Origin: a virus | IMG/VR virus record: IMGVR_UViG_3300023184_000083 | Location: 13,725 to 77,724 of that record | Length of the DNA stretch: 64,000 bases | Strand: one strand, 5' to 3' | Shown here: positions 39,677 through 62,529 of the stretch, piece after piece | Numbering within the stretch: the stretch's first letter is position 1 | How the letters are laid out: the number at the start of each line of letters is the position of its first letter | Made by a program: the position numbers and the translations under genes | The notes under the pieces: generated by a model | Database searches by the model: none | Told to the model about the DNA's origin: nothing | Seen by the model: only the letters and a program-made list of their open reading frames with translations

Positions 39677-42600
39677 TCAAGAACCTCTGAGGTTTTTTCC
39701 CATTGTACGAGGCTTTCTCTTTGTAGATTCTTTATCGCTTCTACTACGCCCGATGACTGTTCTTTTATTCTTTTTTGCTTGCGAACGATTGCTAATACCG
39801 TTAATACCGGCGTCAGAATAACGGCGACTACCGTTACTAGTCTCTTGTGAACGTGCATACCTCTCACGGCTCCATCTCTTAATTGACCTATTGGTAGAGC
39901 GTAGTGTGCCACGGAAGCCTCCACCAGCATCCTTATACATCTTGATAAGTATCTGTTGTTTGCGCGCTGTCCACTCGCCGGCCTTGCCACCATCTTCACC
40001 TTTGAGAATGTTCTTTCTCATCTCTTTCCATAGTTCAGGAGAGTCTTGTTCTAGTGACTTCTGTTGTGGGGCGTTGTCTAAGAAACTCTTAGTAACAACA
40101 GCAACCCATGGGAGGGTCTTTGTATCAGGCTGTTTTATTGGTTTTCCTCTGACGTATCCTACGAACGAGGAGTGTGCCTTGCGTGTCTTCGTGATGTTGT
40201 TGTCTATGAGCGAATGTATATACGCAGTCGCTCTCGTTTTAGGGGGTTCTTGAAGTAGGGATTTGTTTTGAACAGGGCTATAAGTGTCAGGGTTATCCAG
40301 TTGTAGGATTTGCCTCATTGTTTCCACGTCTATGGTCATGTTGTCAGATGCTTTATGTATTTTTTCCAACAGTCTTAAAGCCTCTTTTGCTGTTGAGATT
40401 CCTCGCTTCTCATCAGCCTCTTCCCAAGTCCTAAGTTGCATTATCATGATTCTACGAAATAAATCAAAAGGAAGAGCGTCCTTATATTCAGGATTGTCTG
40501 CATAAATGTTTTGACTCGTATGAACCATTGCTAAAAAGTTTGCCCACTCTCCGTGTCTGTCAAACCCACGACCCGTTCCAAGATGACCAATAATGTCATG
40601 CATGACCTGTATATAGGAACCCTGGTCTTGCTCCTGAATCATCATCGCATCGGATGGAACCCTTAAGAACCTCTCGTACAGGGTGTCAAATGAGTCCATA
40701 GAGCCTCCTGGGGTGTACTCTGCGCCAAGAGATTCACGCAAGTTGTTATATGCGCTACGAGAGATTAATAAGGAATCAGCGGCGTCACTTAGTTTTTCTC
40801 CGAATGTTTCGGAATAATCCGTGTATCCCAGTCCGGGTGTTGGCTCTCTCAAGTTGTCTAGAATGGATTGATACATTCTGATTCTTGCTTCAGAAGATGG
40901 AATTCTCACATGAGAGAAGTCTCCATCAAAGCCAATAATCTTTTGAAATTCTGGAACCGGTGGAGCAATCATGGTGAATATGCCATCCGGTGATGGCTCT
41001 ATGCGAATCTGGTTAACAAGTTCTCTTATTCTTTCTTCTGTCCACATGCCTTGTGGTGTTACGTTTCTATTGCGCATGCGACTGAATAGTTCAGGGTCTC
41101 CGCCTGCCAACTTAAATATGACTTCAGGTATTTTTTCGGGAGCCAAATCATACAGAGATGGGTCTTTTACTAGAGCGTCAATTACTTCTATTGCTGCTTG
41201 TTGAGAGGCAAGACCATGCGTGTGTATGGCGTCCTGTTTAGCAACTGCTTGTACGTCTGTCCTAGTTGCACCATTTAATGGTTTACCTGAACGCAATCCA
41301 CTAATTGGTGAACCATCATTGTTAAGTACCTGTGTTCTGTCGGAGTCGTCAAGCATGTCAATGACAGTTTGAATGTCACCCGTGTATCCATAAATCCAGT
41401 TGTTCCACTGTCCTCCATCCATGTCTTCATCGTATTTATCACCGAAACCAGTGCCATAAGTTTGTTCAATACGTGACATCGCAAATCTAGTAAGCACGCT
41501 TCTCTTAACGGCTTCTTTTTCGTCAGGGGTGAAGTCGTCAAATATTGGATTATCAAGCATTGTAATTACTGCTAATGGGTTAGCCCATTCGCCATGTCTA
41601 TCAAACCCTCTACCAATACCCGCATGACCAAAAGCATCATGTACGCCTGATTCCACACTGCCGGAACCATCAGCGAAGGAACTTCTGATAGGGTTAGACA
41701 AGCCTGATAGGTAGAGACTCAACCAACCAGAGCCCACCGAATCACCGATATCTTCTTTTGGTGCACCTTCTGTTAGTGATTCAACTAGTCCTATTAATCT
41801 GTTGCTGAATCTTTCTTCTAGGCGCTCATAGTTTCTGCCGAAGAGACTCTGCCTAGTATCCTCATCATTAAAAATTGCTTCGGATTGGTTTTCTTTTATG
41901 TGTTTTGCTGCTGCTTTGACTGTCGCACGCTTAGGTACCCGTACCTTAGACCAGTCTCGTTTGTCTGGAATGAATTGAAACATGAGTGGGTTCGGGTCCG
42001 CCATCATCATTGGGATGCCATCATCATCAACTTCAACACGAATGGAATCCAATAGACGCTTCTTGAATTGTTCTATTGCTGAATGTATTGGTCTCTTTGC
42101 TAGTTCTCCACTAGTCACTTCATCCATACGTTGAGTAAGTTCGTCCTCTGCTATGGATACTTCTTTATCTGATAGTTCTAATTCTTTTGATATCTGACCA
42201 AAGTCTTTACCCATGATGGTTGCTGAACGAGAGGCAAGACCACTTACGTTGCGTTCCCATGGTTTATCAGGAGTGCCACCGGTACTGGTGTGTTTGCCTC
42301 TGGTCTCACCCGTGACTGTTATGCCTGACAAACGAGCAAGAGTGCTCCTAAAAGCGTCACTAACAAGCATGTTGTTTACGTTTGCGTGAGGTGAAGTAAC
42401 AGCAGCAAAGCCTTCTGCAAATGTCTCCTGTGGGTCTGACAATGCATAACCCGAAAAGACAACTGGATAACCTTGACCAGCAAGGTCAAAGAAATGAAAC
42501 GGGTCAAAGTGTTTGTTTTCTACTAACCTGCCTCTTGTCACGCTGTCATACATGGAAGAAATAGGCTTACTTACTAATGGGTCACCAAGAGCCCACCCTT

Positions 42601-45828: not shown

Positions 45829-46134
45829 ATGAAACCCCGTATATGCCAATCAAAAAAGAAAGACGGAAACCCCTGTAAAGGAAATGCATTAGGTGGCGGC
45901 TATTTCTGCTATGTACATCAAAACTCCAAAGACCCAATATTAATTAGAGACCCGTTACTAGAAGCAACGCGAGAATGGCACAACTCAATAGTAGCCCTCA
46001 TTGACTGGCACTACCGCACAGGCGGAGATGTCTCTGAAATTTTCGGAAAATATGTTCCGCCCCCAGAAAAAAACCCTTATCGCAAACAGGCAAACTTCAA
46101 CAAACGCGACACTTCGCCAAAACAAGGAATATAA
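45829..46134 (+). CDS. N-terminal C-x-C-x-C-H Zn-finger protein
   Basis: CQ..KKDG.PC......FC..H; AAGGA RBS. Confidence 0.6.
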   Translation: MKPRICQSKKKDGNPCKGNALGGGYFCYVHQNSKDPILIRDPLLEATREWHNSIVALIDWHYRTGGDVSEIFGKYVPPPEKNPYRKQANFNKRDTSPKQGI

Positions 46135-46338
46135 ATGTCTTACGATTTTTCATCAGACGGAATCAAGATTAAGGGCGACGACTCTTTCCATGTAATGAAG
46201 TTGACTGACGTAGACGAGTGGATTCTGCTTCGTCTTCGCAACGGAATCTCTTATAAGGCTGCATCGTTTGTGTCTCCAGACGAGGCACGGGCGTTCGCTC
46301 ACTCAATGGGGCTGGAACTCACTAGAAAAGAACAATAA
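46135..46338 (+). CDS. hypothetical protein
   Basis: AAGGA RBS. Confidence 0.5.
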   Translation: MSYDFSSDGIKIKGDDSFHVMKLTDVDEWILLRLRNGISYKAASFVSPDEARAFAHSMGLELTRKEQ

Positions 46339-46343
46339 GTATT

Positions 46344-46949
46344 GTGTATAAGTTACTAACAGTTGCACTGCTCTCTTTATTCCCCGCCTCTTCACATACG
46401 GCATGCTCAAACATTGTTCATGTAGGAGATTCGGTGACTCTTCACTCCATGAAGTACCAGTATTTGGAATATAAAAAAATTGGATACAAGAAGGCGGTTA
46501 TTTCTGCTGCCGGAAGTCGGTCTATTTTTACAAAAATGCCGAATGACAACTTCACTGGTTTAGAAGCCGTAAAACATTATAAAAAGCATTCGGATAAAAA
46601 TACATGCTGGGTTATTGCTCTTGGAACAAACGACTCAGGACTGATTAAGTACTGGAGCGCCAAGTCGGCAATTATGGCGATAGTTCATGAGATACCGAAC
46701 GCCAACATACTGTGGATAAATATTTGGAAGAGCAGTAGCAAGCACAATGGCCCTAGTGCTACTGAGTGGAACGATGCGCTTGACACAATTTCGGGTAATT
46801 ACGAAAATATGATGGTCCTAGACTGGGCAAAAATAGCATCAAAACATAGGAAATGGTTGAATCCAGATGGAGTTCACTACAATATGCTCGGTTCTCAGAA
46901 TCGCGCAAGGATTGTTGCTAGGGAAGTTAATAGTCTTTGGGGAAACTAG
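46344..46949 (+). CDS. exported SGNH/GDSL hydrolase (OatA-C-like esterase/acyltransferase)
   Basis: Signal peptide; GDS, G.R, LGTND, DGVH blocks. Confidence 0.8.
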   Translation: MYKLLTVALLSLFPASSHTACSNIVHVGDSVTLHSMKYQYLEYKKIGYKKAVISAAGSRSIFTKMPNDNFTGLEAVKHYKKHSDKNTCWVIALGTNDSGLIKYWSAKSAIMAIVHEIPNANILWINIWKSSSKHNGPSATEWNDALDTISGNYENMMVLDWAKIASKHRKWLNPDGVHYNMLGSQNRARIVAREVNSLWGN

Positions 46950-47431
46950 GACTTGCCGGCGATGTAGGCAATAAGTTCATCCATGCTTCGCAGGTCACGT
47001 TTGTTGACAATATAGAAGTTGTCTGTTAACTCCTGTTTTTTGTCGTAAAGATTCTTCTGCCCCCATCTATCTTTTGAAGACGGTCCGACAGCCAGCATTG
47101 CTCCTGTTTTTTTGCTTCGCAGAATATAAGCAAGCGGCTTTTGTTGTTTGTCTTCGTAACTGTTTACGGTATCAACGATGGTTGTAGGGAAAGGAAAGTC
47201 TTTTGGGTCCCATCCAAACTCTATGCTGACGTTCTTCACCTCTAGAACATGTGGAATTAAGTCCAGAACGATGTCTTTTTCTGTAAGGGTCATATGGCGA
47301 CGCTCGCTACTGTTTTTGGCTATCTGAAGTTCTGGGACAGTGCACGGTATGCCGTTATCAATCAGATATTGCGCAACTATTTTGTTGTAGGAGTGACCTT
47401 CTGTAAAAGCCTTCACATAGTCGTAACTCAT
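46946..47431 (-). CDS. PD-(D/E)xK-like protein
   Basis: KDI......LEVK. Confidence 0.5.
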   Translation of the reverse strand: MSYDYVKAFTEGHSYNKIVAQYLIDNGIPCTVPELQIAKNSSERRHMTLTEKDIVLDLIPHVLEVKNVSIEFGWDPKDFPFPTTIVDTVNSYEDKQQKPLAYILRSKKTGAMLAVGPSSKDRWGQKNLYDKKQELTDNFYIVNKRDLRSMDELIAYIAGKS

Positions 47432-47483
47432 TGTTACCCTTCTTGCATGTTTGAGATAGTCGGGCTAGATTAAACCAATATAA

Positions 47484-47556
47484 GCCCTCGTGGCGCAGTG
47501 GATAGCGCAACGGACTTCTAATCCGCAGGTCGTTGGTTCAAATCCAACCGAGGGCG
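47484..47556 (+). tRNA. tRNA-Arg(TCT)
   Basis: GCCCTCG/CGAGGGC acceptor; anticodon loop CTTCTAA; T-arm GTTGG-TTCAAAT-CCAAC; no encoded CCA. Confidence 0.9.
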
Positions 47557-47808
47557 CTGAGTGGAAAATTTTTTTCCTTGAGTAGTGATACGTATCGCTC
47601 TAGGTATTTTGGGGTCAACTTCAATAAAACCTGCTATCACGCATTTGTTTAATACTTTATAGGCTGTAGCAGATGACCGTAAATCAAGCGCATCTGAAAT
47701 ATTTCTGATAGACGGTGGATAACCCTTTTCAGTTATGTAGGAGGAGATGAAAGAAACAGTCTTCTTTACTTCCTTGTCAAAGTCGTAAGTGTGTTTAGGC
47801 GGTTTCAC
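47518..47808 (-). CDS. LexA N-terminal DNA-binding domain protein (no S24 peptidase domain)
   Basis: FI..YI.E.GYPPSIR.I...L.L.S.AT....L......GFI..DP..PRAI. Confidence 0.8.
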   Translation of the reverse strand: MKPPKHTYDFDKEVKKTVSFISSYITEKGYPPSIRNISDALDLRSSATAYKVLNKCVIAGFIEVDPKIPRAIRITTQGKKFSTQRPRLDLNQRPAD

Positions 47809-48112
47809 TTTTCTTCTTCTTTCGTAGGTTTGCAGTCTTTGTTCTGTCGTATTCGCGCTTGCGTAAGAACTCAGCATCACAAGCGAAGTAGTACTCCATC
47901 CCCCAGATAGCAGAGGGGTGTAGCCCGAGGGAGTCAGACATATCTTCCGCCCTATGAATGGGTACTCCAGAGGTGCGCCAAGTTATCAGTGCTCTCCTGC
48001 CGCATCCACACATTGCTGCGATATGTTCCCATCCAATGTCTGCATCTGCAAATAGTTCAATAACGGGCTCAAGAGGGAGCGTTATTGGCTTTAGGTGTTC
48101 AGGAGCAATCAT
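47795..48112 (-). CDS. XRE-like HTH protein
   Basis: IAAMCGCGRRALITWRTSG....A......LGLHP..IWG. Confidence 0.6.
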   Translation of the reverse strand: MIAPEHLKPITLPLEPVIELFADADIGWEHIAAMCGCGRRALITWRTSGVPIHRAEDMSDSLGLHPSAIWGMEYYFACDAEFLRKREYDRTKTANLRKKKKSETA

Positions 48113-48196
48113 TCTTGCCTTTAATGAGGCCGGCAAAGAATCCAACAAAAAACCCAATTAGAATCCCGGCAAAATATAGATAGAATCTTTGAAACA

Positions 48197-48424
48197 TTAT
48201 TTTTCCTTCCAAAGAGGGTCAAGTTCAACACCGTACAACTTGCGAAAATCGGAGTAAATAGCCTTTATTGATTTGGGCGTTCCGTGAGTTGAGTAAATTC
48301 TACCAGGAATGTGTTTTGGTGGCGTTATTTTGAAGGTGTTGTTAACGTGACGAACAGAGAAACCAAGTTTCTCTATCTCTCTTAGAAGGTTTTTTACTTC
48401 TTTGCTTCCGTGGGCACGTGCCAT
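48197..48424 (-). CDS. HicA-like dsRBD-fold protein
   Basis: KEV..L....EK.GF.V.....KI.PP......TP; AAGGAG RBS. Confidence 0.55.
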   Translation of the reverse strand: MARAHGSKEVKNLLREIEKLGFSVRHVNNTFKITPPKHIPGRIYSTHGTPKSIKAIYSDFRKLYGVELDPLWKEK

Positions 48425-48601
48425 TTGGGTGCTTCTCCTTATTAGTAATACCCGCTTATGGGGTATAAGAGAAAGATACCCGTAATTGGCAATTTTGACA
48501 ACCTATTGTTGAAATAAAATTCAAAGTGAGGGTTGGTGATTTTTTAAAGACTCCGTATATTGGTCTTACACCTATTGTCTACCTGCAAAGGATTGCTAAT
48601 T

Positions 48602-48817
48602 ATGACTAACTACAACGAACTCAAGCGCTCAGGGCTAGGACGTGGACGACCGCGACTTTCTGATGAAGACAAAGCAGAGCGCAAGCGTACAAATGCTATT
48701 CGTCAAGAGGCGAGGCGTCGTGCGCATATTGTTTTACAACATCGCCATAGCGATGAGTACGAACAACTGTTTAATGAAGAGTTGTTTAATCTTCTAGGAA
48801 CAGAAGAAAACGATTAA
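48602..48817 (+). CDS. AT-hook-containing basic protein
   Basis: GRGRPR. Confidence 0.55.
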   Translation: MTNYNELKRSGLGRGRPRLSDEDKAERKRTNAIRQEARRRAHIVLQHRHSDEYEQLFNEELFNLLGTEEND

Positions 48818-49122
48818 CTGCGAATAAAAGCGCGAATACGGGCAATAATTCCCTTTTTGGCTTCATTGACATTCTTGTCAAAAAAGTCTTCCGCAAACGC
48901 AAGAACGTGCTCAACGTTTTGCTCAACAGTATTATCGTCAAAACCAAGCAAGTCGGCGACGTCCTTGACTGCCTTTGGTGCAGCCTTCTTTGATGCGGCC
49001 TTCTTTGGTGCGGTCTTCTTCTTAACGGGAGCCTTCTTTGCTGCTGCTTTTTTCTTTGCAGGAGCCTTTTTTGCAGGAGCCTTCTTCGCTTTTGTCTTCT
49101 TTTTTTGTGGTTCTTTTGCCAT
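48814..49122 (-). CDS. histone-H1-like Lys/Ala-rich protein
   Basis: Repeated KKAPAKK N-terminus. Confidence 0.65.
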   Translation of the reverse strand: MAKEPQKKKTKAKKAPAKKAPAKKKAAAKKAPVKKKTAPKKAASKKAAPKAVKDVADLLGFDDNTVEQNVEHVLAFAEDFFDKNVNEAKKGIIARIRAFIRS

Positions 49123-49200
49123 GGCGGAAATACTAATACATTGTTGTAACCATCGGCGGAACTTCCATATTTTTACGAGTCCTTATACTAGGATTTTTTT

Positions 49201-49836
49201 ATGGAAGACATTTATATTGATGACCTTCAAAAATTAGCATTAACATTGACTTCGGCGCAATTGGCAAAAAGAGCCTTTGTATCGGATATGGGCATCGGTG
49301 AAGATATTGCTTTCAACTTTTTTGGATGGCAGAACAACAGAATTGCGCTTATAGCGCAGTTAAACAGGCCTTTAATGAGTCTCAAGCCAGAACAGAGGTT
49401 TGGCGTCTGTGCTGACCTATGCATGGCTATGCGGACATATTGGGGGGTGGATGCCATTTCTATGGTCGCAGAGGGCTGGATTTCAAAAGACCCCGAAAAG
49501 ACCAAGGGTTTAGACCTTCAGAAGGCTTTTGCTAAAAAAGACAGCGAAGTAAGGGAGTGCATCACTATTACTCACGCTGAACTTGATGAAGATGGCGAGA
49601 CTTCAGTTCAATTACTGGCTTGCCCATACGAATACGAATTGGGAAGAAAAGTAAATTTCAAAGATGTTGTTTACTACCGGGATGGTGCCGTCAAGATTAT
49701 TAGAGATAAAAAATTTCCCGCAATGATGATTAAGTGCTTGATGGCAGAGGTTGTGGATAACGTCCCAAGAAATTTAATTGATGATGTAATTCTTGACTTT
49801 CAAGACAAAGGAATTTTCACGCAAGAATTTGCCTAG
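49201..49836 (+). CDS. hypothetical protein
   Basis: 211-aa ORF. Confidence 0.65.
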   Translation: MEDIYIDDLQKLALTLTSAQLAKRAFVSDMGIGEDIAFNFFGWQNNRIALIAQLNRPLMSLKPEQRFGVCADLCMAMRTYWGVDAISMVAEGWISKDPEKTKGLDLQKAFAKKDSEVRECITITHAELDEDGETSVQLLACPYEYELGRKVNFKDVVYYRDGAVKIIRDKKFPAMMIKCLMAEVVDNVPRNLIDDVILDFQDKGIFTQEFA

Positions 49837-49908
49837 TACCCCCGGGTGGAATTGAACCACCTTAACGACCTTATAAGAGTCGCGTCTTAACCAGTAGACG
49901 ACGAGGGC
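49837..49908 (-). tRNA. tRNA-Ile(TAT)
   Basis: Minus strand: GCCCTCG..CGACT-CTTATAA-GGTCG..GGTGG-TTCAATT-CCACC-CGGGGGT-A, 72 nt. Confidence 0.85.
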
Positions 49909-49924
49909 GTGATAAAATCAAAGT

Positions 49925-50224: not shown

Positions 50225-50295
50225 ACGCTTTCACTATTTGTTGATACGGTATCATCTACTACTCACCTTAAAAAATAGATAAGAAAGTTGGACAG

Positions 50296-52227: not shown

Positions 52228-52326
52228 AGTAACAATTGACATAAAAGTTATTAGGACGTAATCGGACATGTTGTATTATGTATTGGTACGGCGTTGTGTG
52301 CAGTACAAAGTAAAATAGGAGACCAC

Positions 52327-52719: not shown

Positions 52720-52734
52720 AAACTCTTAAAGAGG

Positions 52735-52768
52735 AAGCCCCATGTTGTTTGATGCAGTGTGGGGCTTT
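52735..52768. terminator. bidirectional hairpin between convergent genes
   Basis: AAGCCCCA...TGGGGCTT. Confidence 0.6.
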
Positions 52769-53099
52769 ACTTTTTTACAAGACCGTCCGGAATAACCGCA
52801 AATCTGCATATTCCATCTGGGTGTACTTCCGCTGCGATAATCTTGCAATTCGTACCGCCCTGATACAGGACACAATTTGAGCACTTTACGCCAATGCCGG
52901 CGTCTTCGTTGTCTTCTGGCTTTTCATACCCTGCCCAGATTCCGGAATAATCTTCATTAAATTTCCCATACTTTTGAGCAATTGCTGAAAGTGCTTCTGC
53001 AAGTTCACGTTCTTCAGGAACAAGGACAGGTTTTTCTTCCTGCGAAATATGCACAGACATTCCGGGAAACATTAATTTGATTAGTTCTTCAGCATTCAT
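52767..53099 (-). CDS. HiPIP-like 4-Cys domain protein
   Basis: Y......KCSNCVLY....C.II...V.P.G.C. Confidence 0.6.
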   Translation of the reverse strand: MNAEELIKLMFPGMSVHISQEEKPVLVPEERELAEALSAIAQKYGKFNEDYSGIWAGYEKPEDNEDAGIGVKCSNCVLYQGGTNCKIIAAEVHPDGICRFAVIPDGLVKK

Positions 53100-53100
53100 T

Positions 53101-53958
53101 TTATTGCCTCGCTGCCCATGCATTGTCTATGAGATTCGGGTATCTACGACCAGCCTTTTTTGCACGAGCCTTTGCTTTTGCTTTTTGCTCATCTGAAAGC
53201 CCGTGAGAATCATCGTTAGAATTTAACGGTTTTTCCCAAAAAGGCTTATCCCCTGCTTTTGTTTCAATCTCTTCTTGCAGGTCGTCTTTTTTCTTTTTGC
53301 TCGCTTGGTATCTGTCAAGCATTCGGCGACCTTTGGCTGCCAGCGCTGCAGCATCTTCGGCGTTTTGGGGAACTGGTTCACCCCATGCGGCAGCAGATAG
53401 CGCTAGGCGTGTTGGCTTGCCGTTTTCGTCCTTCATGGGACCCGATGGATTGGTGAAGAACCTGGTCAGAAATGAACCCTTGCGACGCATCTTCTGTGGC
53501 GTGTCAGCAGCGCCCATAACTCCTGGTTTGAGGTTCGCCCCCTCTGTTCTCTTGAAGTGCGCTCTACCGGCCGCTGTGAGGCCTCCCTTGGGATTCTTGA
53601 AGGGGCTTTTGGCTCTCTTTTGGTGAATAACATCAGTCTGTGCGGCAATGAGTTTCTTCATTGACTTTTCTCCGATTTGCCCAACCGCAAGCCATTTAAC
53701 TTGTGCTACTACGCCAGCAAGAGTGTGGTCATTTTTGTGACGGGCAATCCATGAGTCACGGAGTTCAAGAATGTCTGCTTGCTCTGGGGTGAGTGCGTAG
53801 CCGTTCTGTGTCACTATTTCTGACAGTGCAGAGAAAGCATTATTTCCATATGAACCGCCAGCCATATCCCATATTTCAGGAAACATTGTCTTTAGTTGAA
53901 CAGCGTATTCGTAATCAAATACTGCGGTTTGTCTTTCGTGTAGGGAAAACTCATCCAT
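53101..53958 (-). CDS. mosaic head-region protein (DUF6321-like middle domain)
   Basis: KNPKGGLTAAGR..F....G.NLKPGV...RR.SF..RF; C-terminal A..AGR.YPNL.DN. Confidence 0.65.
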   Translation of the reverse strand: MDEFSLHERQTAVFDYEYAVQLKTMFPEIWDMAGGSYGNNAFSALSEIVTQNGYALTPEQADILELRDSWIARHKNDHTLAGVVAQVKWLAVGQIGEKSMKKLIAAQTDVIHQKRAKSPFKNPKGGLTAAGRAHFKRTEGANLKPGVMGAADTPQKMRRKGSFLTRFFTNPSGPMKDENGKPTRLALSAAAWGEPVPQNAEDAAALAAKGRRMLDRYQASKKKKDDLQEEIETKAGDKPFWEKPLNSNDDSHGLSDEQKAKAKARAKKAGRRYPNLIDNAWAARQ

Positions 53959-54205
53959 TTGATTTCTTCTTGTCAAACTCTTCTTCTGCTTTTATAAATG
54001 CTTCCATCAGTTTCTTAACTTCTTCTGTTGGTTCAGGGTCTATGCCGTATATCTTTTGATTTGCGACATCTATCCCGGCAGCCTCTGCTATTACGTCAAA
54101 TTTTTCGGCATTTTCTTGCCAGTCTCTCCACATACTGTACGCTTTTAAGGCTTTTTCTTGCCATTGCGCTTCAGTTTGGCCTTCATACCTTGGGGGTATT
54201 TGCAT
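53951..54205 (-). CDS. hypothetical protein
   Basis: AAGGGG RBS; coupled. Confidence 0.55.
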   Translation of the reverse strand: MQIPPRYEGQTEAQWQEKALKAYSMWRDWQENAEKFDVIAEAAGIDVANQKIYGIDPEPTEEVKKLMEAFIKAEEEFDKKKSNG

Positions 54206-54332
54206 TTGCGTCCCCTTGTTTTTTTCTGCGTTCAATAAGCGCCTCAATTTGAGACACGTTCATGCCACTTTTTTTTGCGACCTTTTTCATTTCTTCAGGT
54301 TCATCAAGAATCTCATAACTAGGCGTTGTCAT
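54183..54332 (-). CDS. small protein (49 aa)
   Basis: Hand-translated MTTPSYEILDEPEE...; AAGGA RBS. Confidence 0.45.
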   Translation of the reverse strand: MTTPSYEILDEPEEMKKVAKKSGMNVSQIEALIERRKKQGDANANTPKV

Positions 54333-54477
54333 CTGGCATTCCTTTTTCCATCTTTTTCTTTGCCACTAGTTTCTTGCCGCTATCTATGACCCAGTCTTCA
54401 AACTCATCTGGAATACCTCTTGATTGCGATGCAAACTTAATATATGCGTCTAATGAATCGTCATCATCAGGGGACAT
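54319..54477 (-). CDS. small acidic protein (52 aa)
   Basis: Hand-translated MSPDDDDSLDAY...; AAGGA RBS. Confidence 0.45.
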   Translation of the reverse strand: MSPDDDDSLDAYIKFASQSRGIPDEFEDWVIDSGKKLVAKKKMEKGMPDDNA

Positions 54478-54494
54478 TTTTTTAATTCCTTAGT

Positions 54495-54974
54495 TTATTT
54501 AGATGTTACTTTTTTATCGGTAGTAGTTGGTCCACCAACTACCCAAGCGTCACAAGTACGTTGAGAATGGCACTTGAAGTCAAAGGCTTCGCAGTAACCT
54601 ATCTTGCCGGCGTCAATGATGTCCCACGCGGCACCTGATTCATTTCCAAGCGCCTTATCAATGCAGTCAAGAATACGTGGAGAGCGTACAAAAAGAAGAC
54701 AGTTTCCACATCGTGACTTCTTTGCATCTTCTTCAGAAACGCTCCATCTCTTTGCTTTTGCTGGCCAAAACTTAGCATCTGGCTCCATTGGGTTCATTGG
54801 TCCATAGGCTGCGGTATCAATCGCATTTTGGCGATTCTTTATGTTTACAGCAATGCTTTGAGTTGCTGGGGGGCAAGACTCCCCAGAGTCTTTTGTTGAA
54901 ACCTCTGTGTTAAATAAAAACTTAACGCTAGTGATTTTTTCGCTTAAAGCGCTAAATGTGTTTTCTATTGTCAT
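54495..54974 (-). CDS. Cys-rich head-region protein (HiPIP-like spacing)
   Basis: CP.AT...N.KNR...YGP.NP...CGNC..F...GYC...DFKC...RTCDAW. Confidence 0.65.
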   Translation of the reverse strand: MTIENTFSALSEKITSVKFLFNTEVSTKDSGESCPPATQSIAVNIKNRQNAIDTAAYGPMNPMEPDAKFWPAKAKRWSVSEEDAKKSRCGNCLLFVRSPRILDCIDKALGNESGAAWDIIDAGKIGYCEAFDFKCHSQRTCDAWVVGGPTTTDKKVTSK

Positions 54975-55056
54975 GTAATAATTCTACTTCATAAATGAAC
55001 AGCCCCAGCAACCATCTCTGATTGCTGGGGCTGCCGCCTAAGGTAGCGGATGTTTA

Positions 55057-55617
55057 TTAAAAGAGGGTGTTTGGACGTTGAAGGCCAAGCGATGCACGTA
55101 GTTGCCATGCCCACTTTTGAGCCTCATCAAGATATCCAGCAATAAAGTTGCTAATACCTTGCTCGTCAAGTCCGTTTGCGATATCAAAAGAGTCTTTGAG
55201 GTTCATGCAAAGTTCGTTGATTCCGCTTAAAAGGCTCATTGCCATTGCTTGTGGAGTATCTTCAGGGTCGTATTCAGGAATGGTTCTCAACTTGATGAAG
55301 TCTGACATGTGGAATGGTGCATCAAATCCACATTTGAGGATATTCTCCGCAGTCGGGTCAATATTTCCAAAAAGGAATTCATAAATTTCGCCAAATAGTT
55401 CGTGATATTGAGCAAAGTCGGTTCCCTTTACGTTCCAGTGAAACCCATGGGCTTCGTGGTAAAGAGATGCTGTATTTGCTAACAGGACGTTTAGTGAACG
55501 TACCAGTTCTATATTACTCTTGTTTGAGCGGGGGCTTTCTTGCGGCATTGGGGTAGTAATCTTTCCCTGCACTGAAAGCAGTTGATTGTAAAGGTCTTCG
55601 GGTGTCATGTTGCTCAT
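55057..55617 (-). CDS. dps: Dps / ferritin-like DNA-protection protein
   Basis: HGFHWNVKG..F...HELFGEIY......D..AE.I; K..WQL. Confidence 0.85.
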   Translation of the reverse strand: MSNMTPEDLYNQLLSVQGKITTPMPQESPRSNKSNIELVRSLNVLLANTASLYHEAHGFHWNVKGTDFAQYHELFGEIYEFLFGNIDPTAENILKCGFDAPFHMSDFIKLRTIPEYDPEDTPQAMAMSLLSGINELCMNLKDSFDIANGLDEQGISNFIAGYLDEAQKWAWQLRASLGLQRPNTLF

Positions 55618-55660
55618 ATGTATATTTTACCTTACTATGGTTTCTGTGGGCATAACAACA

Positions 55661-55705
55661 AAAAACCCCCGCACTAACCAATTAAGGAAAAGTACGGGGG
55701 TTTTT
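55661..55705 (-). terminator. terminator after major capsid gene
   Basis: AAAAACCCCCG...CGGGGGTTTTT. Confidence 0.7.
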
Positions 55706-55719
55706 ATTAGTTGTTATGA

Positions 55720-57030
55720 TTAGGCTGTAGGAGCCGCGTCAAATGTGACCTTCACGAACGACTCTGGACGCTTGACAGCAAGCGCAAGGCGCTGCTCAGC
55801 AAGAATTACAATTGCGTTACGGATGAAGAAGTCTGCATGCTGTTCCGAAATACGGATGCTTGCTTGTTCACGGTCATAAAGTTGAGCACCCTGGCCGAAT
55901 GAACCAACGAGTGCAACACCCTCGGTCATTGCTGGGGTTTCAACGATTGGCAAACGCCAAACCTTTGGCTCACCACCGAGTGCAACTGAGATTGCAATGA
56001 GGTACTGACCGAAGGAATCCTTCGTCAACTCAATGTCTTCCCAATCGTTCGGGTGAAGAACAACACCAGATGGTTCGTAGTAAGCAAGGTACGACAGTGT
56101 AGCCGCACGACGAATCGCATCAGCCTTGTTGTCGGGGACCGGTGTTACTGCACCGTCTGACCAGTTGTAGGTCTGGATTCCGGAAGTCTGAAGAATACCA
56201 TGAAGGTTTTCGCCAGTTCCGTCACCGTTGAGGATTTGTGCATCTTCCTGAAGACGTAGACCGTACATCAATTCATTGTCAATGATTGCACGCAATTGTG
56301 GCTCATCGGCAAGAACGTTACGGTGTGCTGCTTCCCAGTGCGCAAGCGTACGGGTAGAAGTCTGAACACCTTCAAATGACATTGTTGACTGTGGCTTAGC
56401 ACCAAAGTTTGTGTTATCACCGTTACGGTCAGCAACCATTGCTGCGTTACGTGTGAAACCGCTCAAACGGAAGTACTCAATGATTGCCGAGGTTGTGGTG
56501 CGAACTGGGAACAGGTCGCGCACGCGCTTGGTACGCATTGGAGGAACAACGATTGGGTCACGCTGGACGGTACCGAATTGTGTTGGGAAACCTGAAGGCA
56601 TAGCCGAATAGATGTCCTTAACTTGGTAACCGCTCGTCAATGAAGCCTTAACTTCAAATGGCGATGTCATGTTTGCGCCGTTCTTGCCATTTTGAAGTGA
56701 CTTGAACTCTGCTGATTCAAGGAACATTTCACCAATGGTTGTTCCGCGCTGCAAGCCTTTTACTGTGTAACCAGCGGCTGCTGCAGTAGCAATTGATTCC
56801 ACAGGTGCCTGTGAACCCCATTGCTCAACTGTGTTGAGTGCTTCAAGACCGTCAATAAGACTCTTGATTTCCTTGATGTCGCCCATGTTTTTATCAAACG
56901 CGGTCTTCTGTTGCTGAGAAACGATAACTGTACCGTCCTCAATTTTGAATGAATCTGCAATGGCTTTATTGTCAGCCATCTTTGCGCGAAGAGCGCTTTG
57001 CAGTTCATTTAGTCTGCCTGTATCGGACAT
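55720..57030 (-). CDS. major capsid protein, HK97 family, with N-terminal delta/scaffold region
   Basis: VRDL..TS..I.Y..KPQS...T.AHW....L.D...L...I...L..GL...ED.QILNGDGTG.NL.GI...F..N...I.AE.R.ALAV.RP.SFV; AAGGAG RBS. Confidence 0.95.
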   Translation of the reverse strand: MSDTGRLNELQSALRAKMADNKAIADSFKIEDGTVIVSQQQKTAFDKNMGDIKEIKSLIDGLEALNTVEQWGSQAPVESIATAAAAGYTVKGLQRGTTIGEMFLESAEFKSLQNGKNGANMTSPFEVKASLTSGYQVKDIYSAMPSGFPTQFGTVQRDPIVVPPMRTKRVRDLFPVRTTTSAIIEYFRLSGFTRNAAMVADRNGDNTNFGAKPQSTMSFEGVQTSTRTLAHWEAAHRNVLADEPQLRAIIDNELMYGLRLQEDAQILNGDGTGENLHGILQTSGIQTYNWSDGAVTPVPDNKADAIRRAATLSYLAYYEPSGVVLHPNDWEDIELTKDSFGQYLIAISVALGGEPKVWRLPIVETPAMTEGVALVGSFGQGAQLYDREQASIRISEQHADFFIRNAIVILAEQRLALAVKRPESFVKVTFDAAPTA

Positions 57031-57174
57031 GTTGTCTCCTTAAAAGACTAAGTGGGTTTGGATTGTTTTGCTGGTCTAGGTAAGCACCCAGCCCCATGTA
57101 CCGATGATAGATGATGATTTTTACTTATTGTGCAACCTTTAAGACTTTATTTTACTTCTTTAAAAATTGCTTGT

Positions 57175-58917
57175 TCAGTCGGCTGCCTGTGAAGAGGTTG
57201 TTTTAATTGCTGCGTCTCGCTCATTTGCTATTTTTTCCCATAAATCGGCCGTTCTTTTACTTTGAGCAAAAGACTCAAATTTTTCTCTATCATGAACAAT
57301 CATTGGTTTTCCGGGGGATTTCTGAGCAATAAGTTTAGGTTTTTCACCCTTGGTCATATCGCCAGAATTATCCCAAAGGTAGAACTCGTCAAGGAGGTCA
57401 CGCTCAAACATTTGGGTTACGTAGGCAGGGATTTCTCCAGCAATTAATCCTGGGAAATATGAAGGAAGGTCCCTTCCTGTCTCTTTGCCACGAGCACTTT
57501 GACGTTGCTCGGCAATAGCAGTTGGAGCGTAAACAAAATGACCAACAGTTTCGTCGCCATTTTTTCTAGCCATTCCCAGATGTTCTATTCTTTTTCCAGT
57601 TCCCTGAATGATGGTATCCATCCCGCCTGCTTGCGCATCGCGGATTACGTGGTCTGTAGCAACACGGGAAGTTTCATGAACCCTACTAGCGCCTTTACCG
57701 TCATTGTATCCAGGCAAACCAAGTTTAATGAAGTCTGGGTCTATGTGTGCAGCCTCATCATCTTTTGGAATAATTCCAATTTCTTGCAGGTATTTTACTG
57801 TCTCGCCTTTTCCTGCTCCAGTTGTTCCACCAATAAAGTACATCTTGCGCTTTGGTTTATTTTTTTGTTCTGCTTTAACTTGACCAAGAATCAATCCACC
57901 CATTGTTTTGCCACCTAGTTCGGCGTAGGGGTTGTTTTGAGTGGCGTTAGAGTTATCAACCTTTGGCATAGATGAACTTTTAAGTCCACTTGCTGGGGTA
58001 AATATCTTTGCAATCTTTTCTCTGTCACGAGGTTTTGCATGTTCTATAAAGTCAGATGGTGCACCAAACTGTTCAATTTTTTGAGGTTCGGAAAGCGAAG
58101 CAAACCAAGATGGTCCACCGTTGTTTTCTGCTTTAAAAGGTTTTGTAACAAGTTTTTCAACAGGCTTCACGTTTGGTGTTGCTGGTCTTTGGAAAGGAGT
58201 TCCTTCTTGAACAACCATGTCTCCATCGGCGTCAACTGCCATGGGGTCAAATCTGTCCATTGAGCGAGCGGAGTTAGATAATGAACGACCTATAGATTTG
58301 TATTCATGAAGTTCATAAGCAAGTGATTTCTTACGTTGTTTTCCAACATCCCTGAGCACTGTTCTTACCACGGAGTTTCTTTGCTCTTGTTGGTGACGTC
58401 TACCAAGTGCAGTAGTGCCAGAAGCGTTTGCATAGTCGGTCATGTTGGTGCATGGCATCCATACGACTTTTCCATTTTTTGAAACTCTTCTAGAAACACC
58501 AATGCAACCAATTTGTCTTGACCTGGCACGAGCGGACTCAATATCTGAAAAAACATCAACATCGTTATCACGAGGAGAATATGGTCCAGTGATTGATTTG
58601 GTCATTATTGGCCCAGAAGCAGGTGCAGAAACCATTCCGCCGCCTTCTATGGATTGAATACCATTTACTCCACGCTCACGAAGGTTTTCAAAGCGCTTCT
58701 TCGCTTTCTTTCCCTTTTTCTTGCGACGCGAATTCCATGTAACTATTTCATCAGTTGCAATACGTGACTTTCCTTCAATTCTTAGAACGGCTGATTTATA
58801 TTCGCCGAAAGAAGAACACGGCATCCATTCGCCATTGTGCGCAACGTGCGCGCCAGAGCAACCCATTTGTTGGGCGTCTCTCAAGGCTTTTAATTGAGCG
58901 CCTATATTTTCTTCCAT
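57175..58917 (-). CDS. tagged protein: 2 GC.G..WMPC repeats + tag + zeta-toxin-like P-loop kinase
   Basis: GGTTGAGKG, HIDPD.IK..LP.Y, VH.TS, R....GR..P, LWDN. Confidence 0.75.
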   Translation of the reverse strand: MEENIGAQLKALRDAQQMGCSGAHVAHNGEWMPCSSFGEYKSAVLRIEGKSRIATDEIVTWNSRRKKKGKKAKKRFENLRERGVNGIQSIEGGGMVSAPASGPIMTKSITGPYSPRDNDVDVFSDIESARARSRQIGCIGVSRRVSKNGKVVWMPCTNMTDYANASGTTALGRRHQQEQRNSVVRTVLRDVGKQRKKSLAYELHEYKSIGRSLSNSARSMDRFDPMAVDADGDMVVQEGTPFQRPATPNVKPVEKLVTKPFKAENNGGPSWFASLSEPQKIEQFGAPSDFIEHAKPRDREKIAKIFTPASGLKSSSMPKVDNSNATQNNPYAELGGKTMGGLILGQVKAEQKNKPKRKMYFIGGTTGAGKGETVKYLQEIGIIPKDDEAAHIDPDFIKLGLPGYNDGKGASRVHETSRVATDHVIRDAQAGGMDTIIQGTGKRIEHLGMARKNGDETVGHFVYAPTAIAEQRQSARGKETGRDLPSYFPGLIAGEIPAYVTQMFERDLLDEFYLWDNSGDMTKGEKPKLIAQKSPGKPMIVHDREKFESFAQSKRTADLWEKIANERDAAIKTTSSQAAD

Positions 58918-58920
58918 CGC

Positions 58921-59301
58921 TTACCCAAAACGCATTAAGTGAGGGCTATCTGGTGGAATATTGTTTAATTCCATTGCCGCTTTTTGGGCATCTGCATGAT
59001 TGCCGTAACGTTTTTTGTAAAGCATCGCTTCATCAAGGTCGTCGGCAAATTTAACGCGAATAGTTGAATGCGGACGAGATTTGTCGTCTGCAGTCATGAA
59101 CCTATTTTCTTCATCCATCATTGCTGAACCAAGTTCTGCCGCTTTGCCTTCGTGAGTTGAAAACGGAGGATAAGACGCTAAGTCTGAAAGTTCTTTATGA
59201 GAATCAACAAAAATTTTCTTTTCTTCATCAGTAGCATTATTTTCTATTACTACTGGGTCTTCGTCATATTCACCAGTCTCGTGATTAAATTTTCTGTTCA
59301 T
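58921..59301 (-). CDS. acidic hypothetical protein
   Basis: 126 aa, tightly packed between two effector-like genes. Confidence 0.6.
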   Translation of the reverse strand: MNRKFNHETGEYDEDPVVIENNATDEEKKIFVDSHKELSDLASYPPFSTHEGKAAELGSAMMDEENRFMTADDKSRPHSTIRVKFADDLDEAMLYKKRYGNHADAQKAAMELNNIPPDSPHLMRFG

Positions 59302-59304
59302 TAT

Positions 59305-62300
59305 TTATGCAGCCTTTTTCTTTGTACGCATTTCTTTGCCATTTGCCCTAATTTGCAGAACCTCTGTTTGGCCCATGCTGTGGTCAACTGCCACTATAGC
59401 GCCTCTGTTGTGGACAAGTTCAACTCCGCCTCCAGCATCAATAGAGTCATAACCAAGCAAAGGAGCAATATATCCGGCCCCACCATCGCCACCGTCGGTA
59501 TGTCTGACTGTTCTATTTAGTTGCTGTAATGCAGCCCATGTATCTATTCGTGTTCTGTCACTAGTGTTGTCTGGAGTTTGGGCATATGCATCTAATGTCT
59601 GTTTGTAAATCTGACCAAGAGGTGTATCCCATACGGGGCTATCTTCCGGTAAAGACCTACCTAAGGACCGTAGCAATTCAGAAACATAATCTGCTGGGTT
59701 CATATTGGATGCTTCGTCTCCAGGGTGTCCAACATCAAATGCCCTAATTCCTTCCTGGATTTTCATACCTTCTGTTTTTATTTGTTGCAATTCGCTCATT
59801 TTTATACGACGAGCAGAGGGAGACAAGAATCCAAAAATATTTACGCTTCCGTAACTAAATGTATGGCTTGAGTTTTCAGGAGCCCAATATTCACCAACAC
59901 CATACACGCGGCCGCCTTGTCCGGGGATAAACCTGTCTGGGTCGGAAAGATACGCTTCACCAAAACCTGGGTTGTCTCCAACTCCTCTGCTCATTGGAGC
60001 CCATCCTGCTCCAATGAGTCTTTCTGCAACTTCTGAAGAAATTGGCGTTGGAAGGGCATTGAACTCATTATTTTCCCATAGGTTGAGCAGGTCTGTGTCT
60101 CTTGTTGAACGGCTCCTTTTCTTATCTCCAGTAAGTGCAGCACCTGTTTCATTAGCAATAACAGCCATCTTTTTAATCCACGATTTAGTAATCGTGTATT
60201 TGGATTCCATCGGGGTGTCACCCTCTGTAATTTTCAAAGGATGTTTATTGACTGCTGCTGTTGCTGCTGAGCGCTTTGCTACGTCTGCTGGCGATTCATC
60301 TCCACGTATCTTGGCTTGAACTGCACGTCGTGCCCTACGAATACGAGCCTTTGCTGCATCTACTGGCTTTGCTTGCTCTGCAGCACGACCTTCTCCGGCT
60401 TTCCTGGCTTTGCGACGCTCGCGCTTGGCTGCACGCTCTGGGTTTACATCAAACAGACGACGAGATAGTTTTTTAAGTTTTTGGTCTGTTTGTTTTTTGA
60501 CAATTGCGCGCTCGCCTGTAGCAAGTTTTTTATCATCAACGTATATTTTTTCTCCAGCGCCTTTACCAAATATTGTTGATTCTTTTGTTTTTGCAAGAGA
60601 AGGAACTTTGTCACCTTCTTCAAGTGCTTTTTCGTAAACATACTTAGTTCCCGCCTTACGGGTTCCTCTACCAAGAGCAGCATCACGAGACGCCGGGTGA
60701 AGGTGCTCAAGAAGACTGTAGTCTCCGCCTTCTTTATTCATATTATTGATTGTGCGAAGGTCGTCAAACTGACGCTGCACCATCATGATTTTATTTACTG
60801 CTGCGGTTCTCTTCTTGTCATCATCAATGACCTTAGCAGCATCAAGGTTATCTTCAATAATTCTTTGAAGTTGAACAAGGAAGTCATCAGTCAAGTCGCT
60901 TGAAGCATTTATGCCTCTATGTCTTTGAATATTTCTAGGATTCCGAAGATATGCATTCCATGCATCCGATGATTCCTTTAGTGCATCTTGAATCTCTTGT
61001 CTTCTGACTTGAAGGTTTTTCTTAATCTTGTCGTGCTGCTCTGGTTTTAGAGATTCCCATGCCGTTCCGTCTGAAGCGTCAACCTTGTCAATACCTGGTG
61101 CACCGCGCTTTTTACTCTTTACTTTACGTGAAGCAAGACCATTTTGAACAGTTGCACGCTCTCTTCTTGCGCGAGAACTAAGGGTTGTTGATACGGACCT
61201 GCGAGACCCCAGACCGCTACCGCCGTCTAATTGAATGACGTAATCTCCAAATCTCATTTCCGTATTTGTTTTAGGGTCAATTATTAAAGCATTCTTGAAA
61301 AGTTCTTTATAAATGCTTTCATCGCCACTAAGTAATTTCTTTTTAAATGCTTTTCTCTTTTTTTCATTGGTAACAGTATCTAAATCAATATCAAGACCGA
61401 GAAATTTTCTGATGTTGCCGAGCATCAACTTCCCACCATGGGGGTCATCAAGTATGCTTTGATGAGCACTAGTTCTTCCGCTCCTATTTGTTTTTGGCAA
61501 AAGAGGAATTACATTTTCCATAAAATATTTTTCTGCTGGTTCCGGAAGTCTCCATCCCCATGTATGTCCATCGCTCTCCCAGGTGACCAGACCTGCGTCC
61601 TTGAGCGCTTTTTTGCCTTGTTCACCGCTGAATCTCATTTTTAGACCTGAAGACTCCGTGCGTATTTTTACTCCACGTGCTGCTTCTTCGGTTCTTTTAG
61701 CCATACCAACAACGTTTGGTGTTGCAGGGCGTTCAAAAGAAGTTCCTTCTTGGATTATTTTGTCTCCATCGGCGTCAACTGCATTGGGGTCAAATCTTGC
61801 TGTTACAAATTTGCCTGCTCTTCTTCCTGCACGCGCTCCAGTACCTGCAGAACCGCCGATAGTTACGCCAAGTCCTTTTGTCTCAAGAGTTTCTTCAAGA
61901 CCTTTGGCAATGCGCTCCGAGCCGTATTCGCTAACCTTGAGCATCTTGAGTCCAAGCCTACGCTCAAAAGAATTAGAAGTATTTTTTTCAATTCTATTTC
62001 TGACTAGCGATTTTACTTCAATACTTGTTGGAACATTAAACTGTCCTGACTCAATATCAAATGCGTATCTATTTGATTTTATTTCTCTTAAGAAACTTGA
62101 ACGCTTTACATCGCTCTTGAAAGATGATGCCTTATAAGAAACAGCATTAAGAAATTTATCATTTGAAAAATGTTGTAGAGGAGTATCTGCAACTGCTGGA
62201 ACACGTGACTTTGAAGAAATTTGACCAGTAAGTTTAAGAACTTGTTTTTTGCCGGTTCTTCCAAACTGCTTGACGCTAGTTGCTTCTAATTCATTATTGC

Positions 62301-62529
62301 CTGCATATCGTGCGAACTCTAAGTTGTCAACTTCCTTAAATGGACCAATTATTACGCCTGGCGGAATATCTAGACCGTCAAGAGACTTAACTGAAGAGTT
62401 GTTTGCCCAGTTTGCCCACTCGTTGCTTCTTGCACCAGAGCCAAAAAATTCAAGCCCTGACTCGCTCTTTACTGCTATTGCAAAATGCTCACCCTGCAAT
62501 GCATCGTGAAGTACGGCTACTGTTTTCAT
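59305..62529 (-). CDS. 1074-aa tagged protein with C-terminal ADP-ribosyltransferase-like domain
   Basis: SRGV...G.GG.VYG.G.Y.A...GYD.I.....V.NR.A.V pattern of phage head-associated ART domains. Confidence 0.65.
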   Translation of the reverse strand: MKTVAVLHDALQGEHFAIAVKSESGLEFFGSGARSNEWANWANNSSVKSLDGLDIPPGVIIGPFKEVDNLEFARYAGNNELEATSVKQFGRTGKKQVLKLTGQISSKSRVPAVADTPLQHFSNDKFLNAVSYKASSFKSDVKRSSFLREIKSNRYAFDIESGQFNVPTSIEVKSLVRNRIEKNTSNSFERRLGLKMLKVSEYGSERIAKGLEETLETKGLGVTIGGSAGTGARAGRRAGKFVTARFDPNAVDADGDKIIQEGTSFERPATPNVVGMAKRTEEAARGVKIRTESSGLKMRFSGEQGKKALKDAGLVTWESDGHTWGWRLPEPAEKYFMENVIPLLPKTNRSGRTSAHQSILDDPHGGKLMLGNIRKFLGLDIDLDTVTNEKKRKAFKKKLLSGDESIYKELFKNALIIDPKTNTEMRFGDYVIQLDGGSGLGSRRSVSTTLSSRARRERATVQNGLASRKVKSKKRGAPGIDKVDASDGTAWESLKPEQHDKIKKNLQVRRQEIQDALKESSDAWNAYLRNPRNIQRHRGINASSDLTDDFLVQLQRIIEDNLDAAKVIDDDKKRTAAVNKIMMVQRQFDDLRTINNMNKEGGDYSLLEHLHPASRDAALGRGTRKAGTKYVYEKALEEGDKVPSLAKTKESTIFGKGAGEKIYVDDKKLATGERAIVKKQTDQKLKKLSRRLFDVNPERAAKRERRKARKAGEGRAAEQAKPVDAAKARIRRARRAVQAKIRGDESPADVAKRSAATAAVNKHPLKITEGDTPMESKYTITKSWIKKMAVIANETGAALTGDKKRSRSTRDTDLLNLWENNEFNALPTPISSEVAERLIGAGWAPMSRGVGDNPGFGEAYLSDPDRFIPGQGGRVYGVGEYWAPENSSHTFSYGSVNIFGFLSPSARRIKMSELQQIKTEGMKIQEGIRAFDVGHPGDEASNMNPADYVSELLRSLGRSLPEDSPVWDTPLGQIYKQTLDAYAQTPDNTSDRTRIDTWAALQQLNRTVRHTDGGDGGAGYIAPLLGYDSIDAGGGVELVHNRGAIVAVDHSMGQTEVLQIRANGKEMRTKKKAA

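Follow-up and report, generated by a model that had tools for sequence, protein, structure and literature searches.

In phage T4, a capsid targeting sequence is carried by IPI-III and Alt and is removed by the prohead protease gp21 (Mullaney and Black 1996, cited in PMC9024508). In phage P1, an N-terminal peptide is enough to direct a very large anti-restriction protein, or a reporter, into a head of the HK97-like type. In HK97 itself, the prohead protease gp4 reportedly has a C-terminal tail that targets it to the capsid, and temperate phages are said to encode polymorphic toxins fused to the MuF domain. For a further group, the polyvalent proteins, packaging, processing and injection along with the DNA have been predicted (Iyer, Burroughs, Anand, de Souza and Aravind 2017, PMC5512222). 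The element analyzed here is a 24-residue peptide, referred to as the tag, that is carried by three large proteins (P0001, P0002 and P0003) encoded in a stretch of 64,000 nucleotides (the window; bases 13725-77724 of the 77,724-bp IMG/VR virus record IMGVR_UViG_3300023184_000083). The tag is the last part of a cassette in which a Lys site (K/[ASG][LIVMA]), a basic leader and the tag follow one another.

Each of these systems resembles the cassette in some respects and departs from it in others. The T4 signal is likewise a short peptide on unrelated cargo, coupled to a prohead-protease site, and its cargo is injected; it is about 10 residues long, strictly N-terminal and cut off on its C-terminal side after Glu by a protease of family S77, whereas the cut predicted here falls after Lys on the N-terminal side of the tag and involves a protease of family S78, and cassettes are found within polyproteins too. 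With the predicted cut upstream, the tag would stay on the cargo, unlike the T4 signal. The T4 signal is cut at (L/I)-x-E on its C-terminal side; the conserved site of the cassette is K/[ASG] upstream of the tag, and such sites are not enriched downstream. The P1 signal shows no sequence likeness to the tag, is known from a single protein and depends on helper proteins, whereas the present motif recurs on 1-7 proteins in each phage and across about 965 protein clusters. HK97 gp4 shares with tagged proteases a targeting element C-terminal to the S78 domain and cleavage after Lys, but it is a small stand-alone protein that lacks the DxDxDG motif and has no cargo fused behind it. MuF-fused toxins and the MuF-type head protein of cyanophage P-SS2 also place a constant, head-associated part before variable toxin-like domains; that part is a folded MuF domain of about 250 residues, in contrast to the short peptide found here, and no MuF (Phage_Mu_F) domain was detected in P0001, P0002 or P0003 by a Pfam scan at E<=0.1.

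The polyvalent proteins resemble the tagged proteins in overall composition, being large chains of unrelated enzymes encoded among virion genes, with zincin-like peptidases as the commonest component next to zeta-like kinases, ADP-ribosyltransferases (ART), GNAT, nucleases, helicases and helix-turn-helix (HTH) domains. At least two disparate domains are likewise present in P0001 (two zincin-like, two repeat and C-terminal modules) and in P0003 (DUF3721 and a zeta kinase), and homologues of tagged proteins add RNase_T, GNAT, WYL, UvrD and sigma70_r4. A location among late or virion genes applies to P0002 and P0003, which lie upstream of the capsid gene, and related loci lie between portal and capsid-region genes. 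The virion anchors of polyvalent proteins are whole domains (MuF, portal), and their assemblin-like protease is described as always C-terminal (PMC5512222), whereas the constant part here is limited to a DxDxDG peptide of 24 residues that has a Lys site upstream, MuF is lacking and the S78 protease is N-terminal.

The tag and its cassette

An earlier note, made from the letters of the window, had placed three tags on three large, otherwise unrelated proteins, each tag behind an E-x-K motif, and had not recognized the tag as a described signal. The observation is confirmed. A six-frame regex scan of all 77,724 bp returned the motif RFDPxAxDxDGDxxxQxxxxF[EQ]RP exactly three times, once per protein and with no fourth copy, and the three open reading frames (ORFs) and tags lie where the note had put them; E-x-K-[GS]-[LI]-G stands 5-23 residues upstream of each tag, and outside the cassette the three proteins share no domain at E<=1e-4. 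No model in Pfam, NCBIfam or PHROGs covers the tag, and a literature search on the motif words gave nothing relevant. Seventy distinct tags, collected from metagenome proteins and from IMG/VR loci, form a gap-free alignment with the consensus [R]FDP[NK]A[IVFW]D[AG]D[GN]DG[LIV][VI]Q[ED]G[TS]x[FWY][EQK]RP, and among 36 tags the DxDxDG loop pattern is kept, with D13, D15 and D17 invariant, G18 at least 90% conserved and a hydrophobic residue two positions later. Among 1.84 billion metagenome cluster representatives, a profile of these 36 tags matches 965 at E<=1e-3, of which 347 remain at E<=1e-10. These results support the tag as a real, conserved and so far undescribed module on unrelated proteins. 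At the DNA level, the tag-coding regions of P0002 and P0003 (61699-61812 and 58156-58269, both on the minus strand) are near-identical in their core, with the same synonymous codons and agreement at 33 of 36 bases from AGATTTGACCCC onward, which suggests recent exchange between the two head-block genes; that of P0001 has diverged from both.

The association between the tag and the Lys site extends well beyond the window. K[ASG][LIVMA] precedes 112 of the 126 strong internal tags (89%), at a distance of 7-38 residues (median 20), compared with 17% of control windows from the same proteins, and sites of this type are not enriched downstream of the tag. The leader between the two is basic (28% K+R, as against 15% overall). 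A further 51 strong tags stand at native N-termini, where they are preceded by the same kind of basic leader; these native leaders resemble the remnant that cleavage is predicted to leave elsewhere (for example, MAPRLRQEP/YN compared with ...TK/AAKLKLEP/YN). In P0005, three complete cassettes each precede a different module. The HK97 capsid protein is cut at K103/S104 (PMC10275583), and the Lys site of the cassette is, judged by its residues, of the type used in HK97.

A second recurring element, GLxS, had been proposed to separate individual effectors, and the motifs proved to be real, enriched and, in P0001, located at module borders. P0001 contains five GL[RKAGST]S motifs compared with 0.33 in shuffles (P=0.0005), P0002 has four matches to a wider pattern compared with 0.5, and similar excesses are seen in P0030 (10, with 0.46 expected) and P0028 (8, with 0.35 expected). 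The P0001 motifs at residues 79, 395, 801 and 1115 coincide with the borders of modules that were mapped independently, by homology (81-395, 421-800 and 811-1110), and at least two of the three in P0002 fall in linkers that AlphaFold2 leaves disordered. Across the P0002 family, G464 and S467 are at least 90% conserved. More generally, G[LMF]x[SM] is three times commoner within 60 residues after the tag than in controls, RGLASR and RGFASSR linkers are present in P0030 and P0037, and the capsid protein has no GLxS motif.

Carriers of the tag and their gene neighborhoods

Dozens of families have the tag behind an S78 (HK97-family) prohead protease domain. In these carriers, S78 stands at the N-terminus; inserts come next, then the Lys site and the tag, and the C-terminal remainder is variable and reaches up to 3,352 residues. 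Some include UvrD helicase or sigma70_r4/HTH domains. Within tag-bearing phages, conservation of the S78 domain is very high, with E values of 1e-86 to 1e-95 across 170 residues. Other classes are the P0002 family, which consists of an N-domain, the cassette, a variable middle and a conserved C-terminal domain; proteins with DUF3721, the cassette and a zeta kinase; giants of 3,100-3,400 residues, in which the tag at residue 36-60 is followed by zincin-like repeats, RNase_T, GNAT and WYL; two-tag proteins; and small proteins of 65-250 residues, with tandem tag copies in those of loci L035, L040 and L041. The partner domains comprise zeta kinase, ADPrib_exo_Tox, RNase_T, GNAT, NUDIX, UvrD, sigma70_r4/HTH and ATLF-like zincin, and a Pfam tally of 48 further carriers added DUF3626, DUF7178, ADPrib_exo_Tox, PI3_PI4_kinase and NUDIX. 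This set agrees with the enzyme repertoire published for polyvalent proteins (PMC5512222) and MuF-fused effectors.

Gene contexts in relatives, drawn from IMG/VR and GTDB loci, place portal, capsid and protease genes among the neighbors of tagged genes, and single phage records hold 7, 5, 3, 2 or 1 tagged ORFs. In L005, L010 and L018 the portal gene precedes the S78-tag polyprotein gene, and L015-L017 repeat the order seen in the window (upstream gene, P0002-like gene, small gene, P0003-like gene, capsid gene). In the S78-tag phages, the polyprotein gene is followed by a gene for a protein of 480-553 residues (L005:13394-14905, L010:16006-17514, L018:14057-15718) that combines a Cys-rich CxKG...CGxxxGxKVCGKCGA motif with subsequent long poly-acidic runs, matches no family and may be scaffold-like.

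The three proteins of the window and the head block

The record is 49% complete according to CheckV and lacks terminal repeats. Besides an HK97-fold capsid protein and tail-fibre-like proteins, its products include a class II ribonucleotide reductase, a primase-helicase and 2OG-Fe oxygenases, along with two tRNAs. Its nearest cultured phages are Gordonia and Brevibacterium myoviruses (46-48% identity in the capsid protein; protease subfamily), and its host is probably an aquatic actinobacterium. The start of the contig, which lies outside the window (G000:C1:1-60), falls inside a Gly/Ala-rich repeat of the GGAGCAGGCGGT type, to which the break in the assembly at this point is probably due. Coordinates of all features are collected in Table 1.

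Table 1. Features of the window (a slash marks a predicted or putative cut; P0001-P0004 are the proteins named in the text)
Feature	Position	Strand	Remarks
P0001, 1654 residues	39677-44641	-	leader, cut site, tag, two zincin-like modules, two repeat modules, basic C-terminal part
EVK/GLG of P0001	44528-44545	-	predicted prohead-protease site
P0001 tag, RFDPKAFDGDGDGLVQDASEFERP	44438-44509	-	
P0001 zincin-like module A	43457-44401	-	residues 81-395; HEFGH at 43862-43876, then EMFAEG
GLRS motifs	44396-44407 and 43448-43459	-	bounding zincin-like module A of P0001
P0001 zincin-like module B	42242-43381	-	residues 421-800; HEYGH at 42719-42733, then ETFAEG
GLAS	42230-42241	-	after zincin-like module B of P0001
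P0001 repeat module 1	41312-42211	-	residues 811-1110
GLRS and GLAS	41288-41299 and 41204-41215	-	after repeat module 1 of P0001
P0001 repeat module, second copy	40445-41035	-	
tRNA-Arg(TCT)	47484-47557	+	between P0001 and ribonucleotide reductase gene
tRNA-Ile(TAT)	49836-49908	-	between P0001 and ribonucleotide reductase gene
orf118	52767-53123	-	untagged; downstream of capsid gene
DUF6321 protein	53101-53976	-	untagged; downstream of capsid gene
orf159	54495-54974	-	untagged; downstream of capsid gene
Dps/ferritin-like gene	55057-55617	-	untagged; directly after capsid gene; PF00210 E 3e-13
HK97-fold major capsid protein (P0004)	55720-57030	-	PF05065 E 6e-45; phrog_10; N-terminal scaffold (delta) region
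Capsid scaffold-region site EFK110/S	56698-56709	-	E-x-K/[SG]L type; conserved in related capsids
Capsid scaffold-region site EIK56/S	56860-56871	-	E-x-K/[SG]L type; conserved in related capsids
P0003, 580 residues	57175-58917	-	two DUF3721 hairpins, cut site, tag, GLKS (57976-57987), Zeta-toxin-like P-loop kinase
P0003 Zeta-toxin-like kinase	57463-57876	-	PF06414; Walker A GTTGAGKG at residue 364
P0003 tag, RFDPMAVDADGDMVVQEGTPFQRP	58183-58254	-	
EYK/SIG of P0003	58288-58305	-	predicted cut site
126-residue gene product	58921-59301	-	between P0002 and P0003; same place in syntenic loci L015-L017
P0002, 1074 residues	59305-62529	-	N-domain (1-205), cut site, basic leader, tag, linker, helical middle, conserved C-terminal domain
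P0002 C-terminal domain	59308-60249	-	residues 761-1074; conserved across P0002 family; model pLDDT 85.5
GLKM, GLGS, GLAS	61636-61647, 61204-61215, 61129-61140	-	P0002 disordered linker
P0002 tag, RFDPNAVDADGDKIIQEGTSFERP	61726-61797	-	
ETK/GLG of P0002	61867-61884	-	predicted cut site
Gene upstream of P0002, 490+ residues	62526-63998	-	runs off contig; conserved in syntenic loci

The catalytic modules that the earlier note had listed behind the tags differ in how firmly they can be assigned. The zeta kinase of P0003 is firmly assigned (PF06414 at E 1.4e-12, with 48 bits where the cut-off is 22.3), and a match to its zeta domain is found in the MuF-type "head morphogenesis" protein of cyanophage P-SS2. 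The zincin assignment of P0001 is based on two HExxH...ExFAEG motifs together with Pfam matches to Peptidase_Mx, Peptidase_Mx1 and ATLF, all of which are below their cut-offs. The two repeat modules of P0001 are of the HDxxGH...GRGFDRHGEWAN type and belong to phrog_3170, a family of unknown function, and the basic C-terminal part corresponds to phrog_17747; a PDB sequence search with P0001 gave no match, and an ESM Atlas search with the repeat module gave no usable one. For P0002, the suggested ART-like character is confined to the level of the fold. In an unbiased search of the C-terminal model against 48,161 chains, most top rows were PARP, exotoxin A, diphtheria toxin, MbcT or RES, with Z scores of only 4-5.8; the label is plausible and, given these scores, not established. 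Foldseek with the same domain returned nothing at E<=0.001, and a PDB sequence search with the P0002 family profile returned no match. The N-domain of P0002 was also considered as a divergent prohead protease and rejected, as its AlphaFold2 model consists of a few short strands followed by long helices and matches no protease, and a normal S78 protease is encoded elsewhere in a syntenic relative.

Two of the tagged genes had been noted directly upstream of the capsid gene; P0003 lies 144 bp from it, and P0002 one small gene further up. The capsid protein P0004 combines the HK97 fold with an N-terminal scaffold region, as in HK97-type heads, and its residues 156-432 align to the mature HK97 gp5 chain 1ohg_A. 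A third candidate site in this protein, EVK128/AS, was rejected as the maturation site because it is not conserved among relatives. The gene upstream of P0002 was considered as a portal gene and likewise rejected, with no PHROG, Pfam or NCBIfam match and a probability of 0.1 in profile-profile comparisons with seven portals. In contigs of metagenome-assembled genomes (MAGs), members of its family are fused to a degenerate tag with a C-terminal extension exceeding 1,000 residues (L045:2607-7619, L047:1814-7723, L046:1072-4608), which indicates that the family itself belongs to the tagged set in some phages.

Downstream of the capsid gene, orf159, the DUF6321 protein and orf118 are encoded separately in the window; in L007, L005/L018 and L008 they form inserts between the S78 domain and the tag of head polyproteins. 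A homologue of the Dps/ferritin-like gene (L041:15926-16408) directly follows the portal gene in an unrelated tag-bearing contig, and the position of this gene recalls the ferritin-like cargo of encapsulins.

Capsid address or another role

Taken together, the data lead us to favor, with moderate confidence, a model in which the cassette is an address for capsid cargo with processing by the prohead protease, related to the capsid-targeting signals of T4 and P1 and to the polyvalent proteins. The presence of the tag in about 1000 phage protein families, including fusions to the head protease, indicates that it is probably a capsid-loading label. According to this model, the cassette would mark proteins to be built into the procapsid, and the HK97-type (S78) prohead protease would cut after Lys and thereby place the tag at the N-terminus of the processed cargo. 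This cargo would consist of enzyme chains of the polyvalent type, with zincin-like peptidases, a zeta-like kinase and probably a domain of ADP-ribosyltransferase fold. The chains would be further punctuated at GLxS, where the prohead protease or the zincin-like modules may cut, and would presumably be delivered with the DNA, and in related phages the protease would share the same address. The notion of packaged effector polyproteins is itself already published (Iyer et al. 2017), and the interpretation given in the earlier note is, overall, partly supported.

Several observations weigh against a capsid address. S78, S77 (PF03420), ClpP and S49 proteases are all absent from the 77.7-kb, 49%-complete record. 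In the relative G005, which is syntenic with the head block of the window, S78 is found about 20 kb away in a 1739-residue ORF that also bears the tag, and the complete 150.9-kb record of L025 (G001:C1:44127-45422) has a 4905-residue open frame that starts with an S78 domain and the tag; the absence therefore does not refute the model. Relatives use S78 rather than a gp21-type S77 protease, and the half of this genome that is missing probably contains an equivalent S78-tag gene. The tag is also present in no cultured phage record: tblastn with P0001, P0002, the tag peptide and P0037 recovers the S78 domain only (Gordonia, Brevibacterium and Streptomyces phages), a negative that is soft because the BLAST low-complexity filter may mask DGDGDG, and ChisanaKitsune and Cantare, the closest cultured relatives by capsid, are without it. 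A profile search had been expected to return diverse partner domains confined to head clusters, and only the former applies. Small tagged proteins of 87-207 residues occur outside head clusters as well, one of 95 residues precedes a major tail protein, others of 88 residues lie between 2OG-Fe oxygenase and tail-fibre-like genes, and a small two-tag protein carries a peptidoglycan-binding domain; P0001 itself is 11 kb from the head cluster and adjoins replication genes. Furthermore, the same tag is found across phages with differing capsid-region genes, such that a capsid-specific receptor is not obvious, and the E-x-K sites within any one protein are too short to be significant alone. Finally, the cassette including the tag is unstructured in the AlphaFold2 model of full-length P0002 (predicted local distance difference test, pLDDT, 25-38). 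In this model, the tag behaves as a linear motif rather than a folded domain, which is compatible with a docking peptide or a Ca2+-induced fold and proves neither.

An alternative that we consider unlikely is that the tag serves as a docking (exosite) peptide or processing signal for the prohead protease, bringing substrates to the enzyme and setting its cutting position, and not as an address for the capsid shell. The tight coupling to a Lys site 7-38 residues upstream would be accounted for, as would the occurrence of the tag in cis to S78 in many proteins and the high conservation of S78 in tag-bearing phages whose neighboring head genes differ; the 51 tags at native N-termini need no cut, however, and cultured actinophages with the same S78 subfamily lack the tag. 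Also improbable is a generic Ca2+-binding structural loop that stabilizes virion-associated proteins in Ca-rich water and recurs through domain shuffling. Loops of the DxDxDG type that bind Ca2+ have reportedly been described, and the D-x-D-x-D-G core with its flanking hydrophobic residues resembles them; the tandem copies in the small proteins of L035, L040 and L041 and the copies outside head modules would fit as well. Such a loop would not be expected in linkers that are modeled as disordered, nor would its tie to an upstream Lys site or to N-termini, nor its occurrence once per module in unrelated proteins. The tag is, moreover, essentially absent from bacterial proteins. Only 7 loci were found among 185,579 bacterial and archaeal species genomes (one genome per species), all of them on mis-binned phage contigs of MAGs that carry the same phage head genes, which argues against the possibility, raised in the earlier note, that the tag is mainly a generic motif of non-phage secreted proteins.

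It is even less likely that the tag acts solely in ejection, by binding the portal or tail channel or by ordering the exit of internal proteins, without a role in loading. The tag would remain on the mature N-terminus, and it is fused behind a conserved head-block protein in L045-L047, but the tag is also carried by the prohead protease, for which no ejection is known. The C-terminal domain of P0002 weakly resembles a chain of the cyanophage A4 pre-ejectosome, at a Z score (4.7) below any reliable level. In FrpC-type RTX proteins, a self-processing module cuts an Asp-Pro bond in a Ca2+-dependent manner, and in the main tag subfamily F-D-P is invariant and directly followed by the Ca-type loop. 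That the tag is a self-cleaving element of this kind is nevertheless very improbable, since Asp-Pro is absent from many members of the tag family (YNH, YIP, FKA and FKE variants) and the known FrpC module comprises about 170 residues, not 24.

A more elaborate version of the capsid address, which we regard as doubtful, would make the tag a portable, Ca2+-gated signal for load and release in hundreds of uncultured lineages. In the low-Ca cytoplasm the tag would be unfolded and would dock the protease, together with as many as seven cargo proteins, into the procapsid. Ca2+ would lock it when the virion reaches water, and entry into the next cell would release it again. If true, the tag would represent an environment-sensing switch for injected enzymes, without a described counterpart.

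How HK97-like phages choose the proteins that are enclosed and injected is little known beyond T4, P1 and the MuF fusions. One very conserved peptide of 24 residues, shared by the head protease and many enzyme cargoes, provides a simple and testable handle on this choice, and it raises the possibility that calcium takes part in loading or release. If portable, the tag could pack foreign proteins into phage capsids. More generally, it would allow the cargo of these phages, likely enzymes of anti-defence and takeover, to be read directly from metagenomes.

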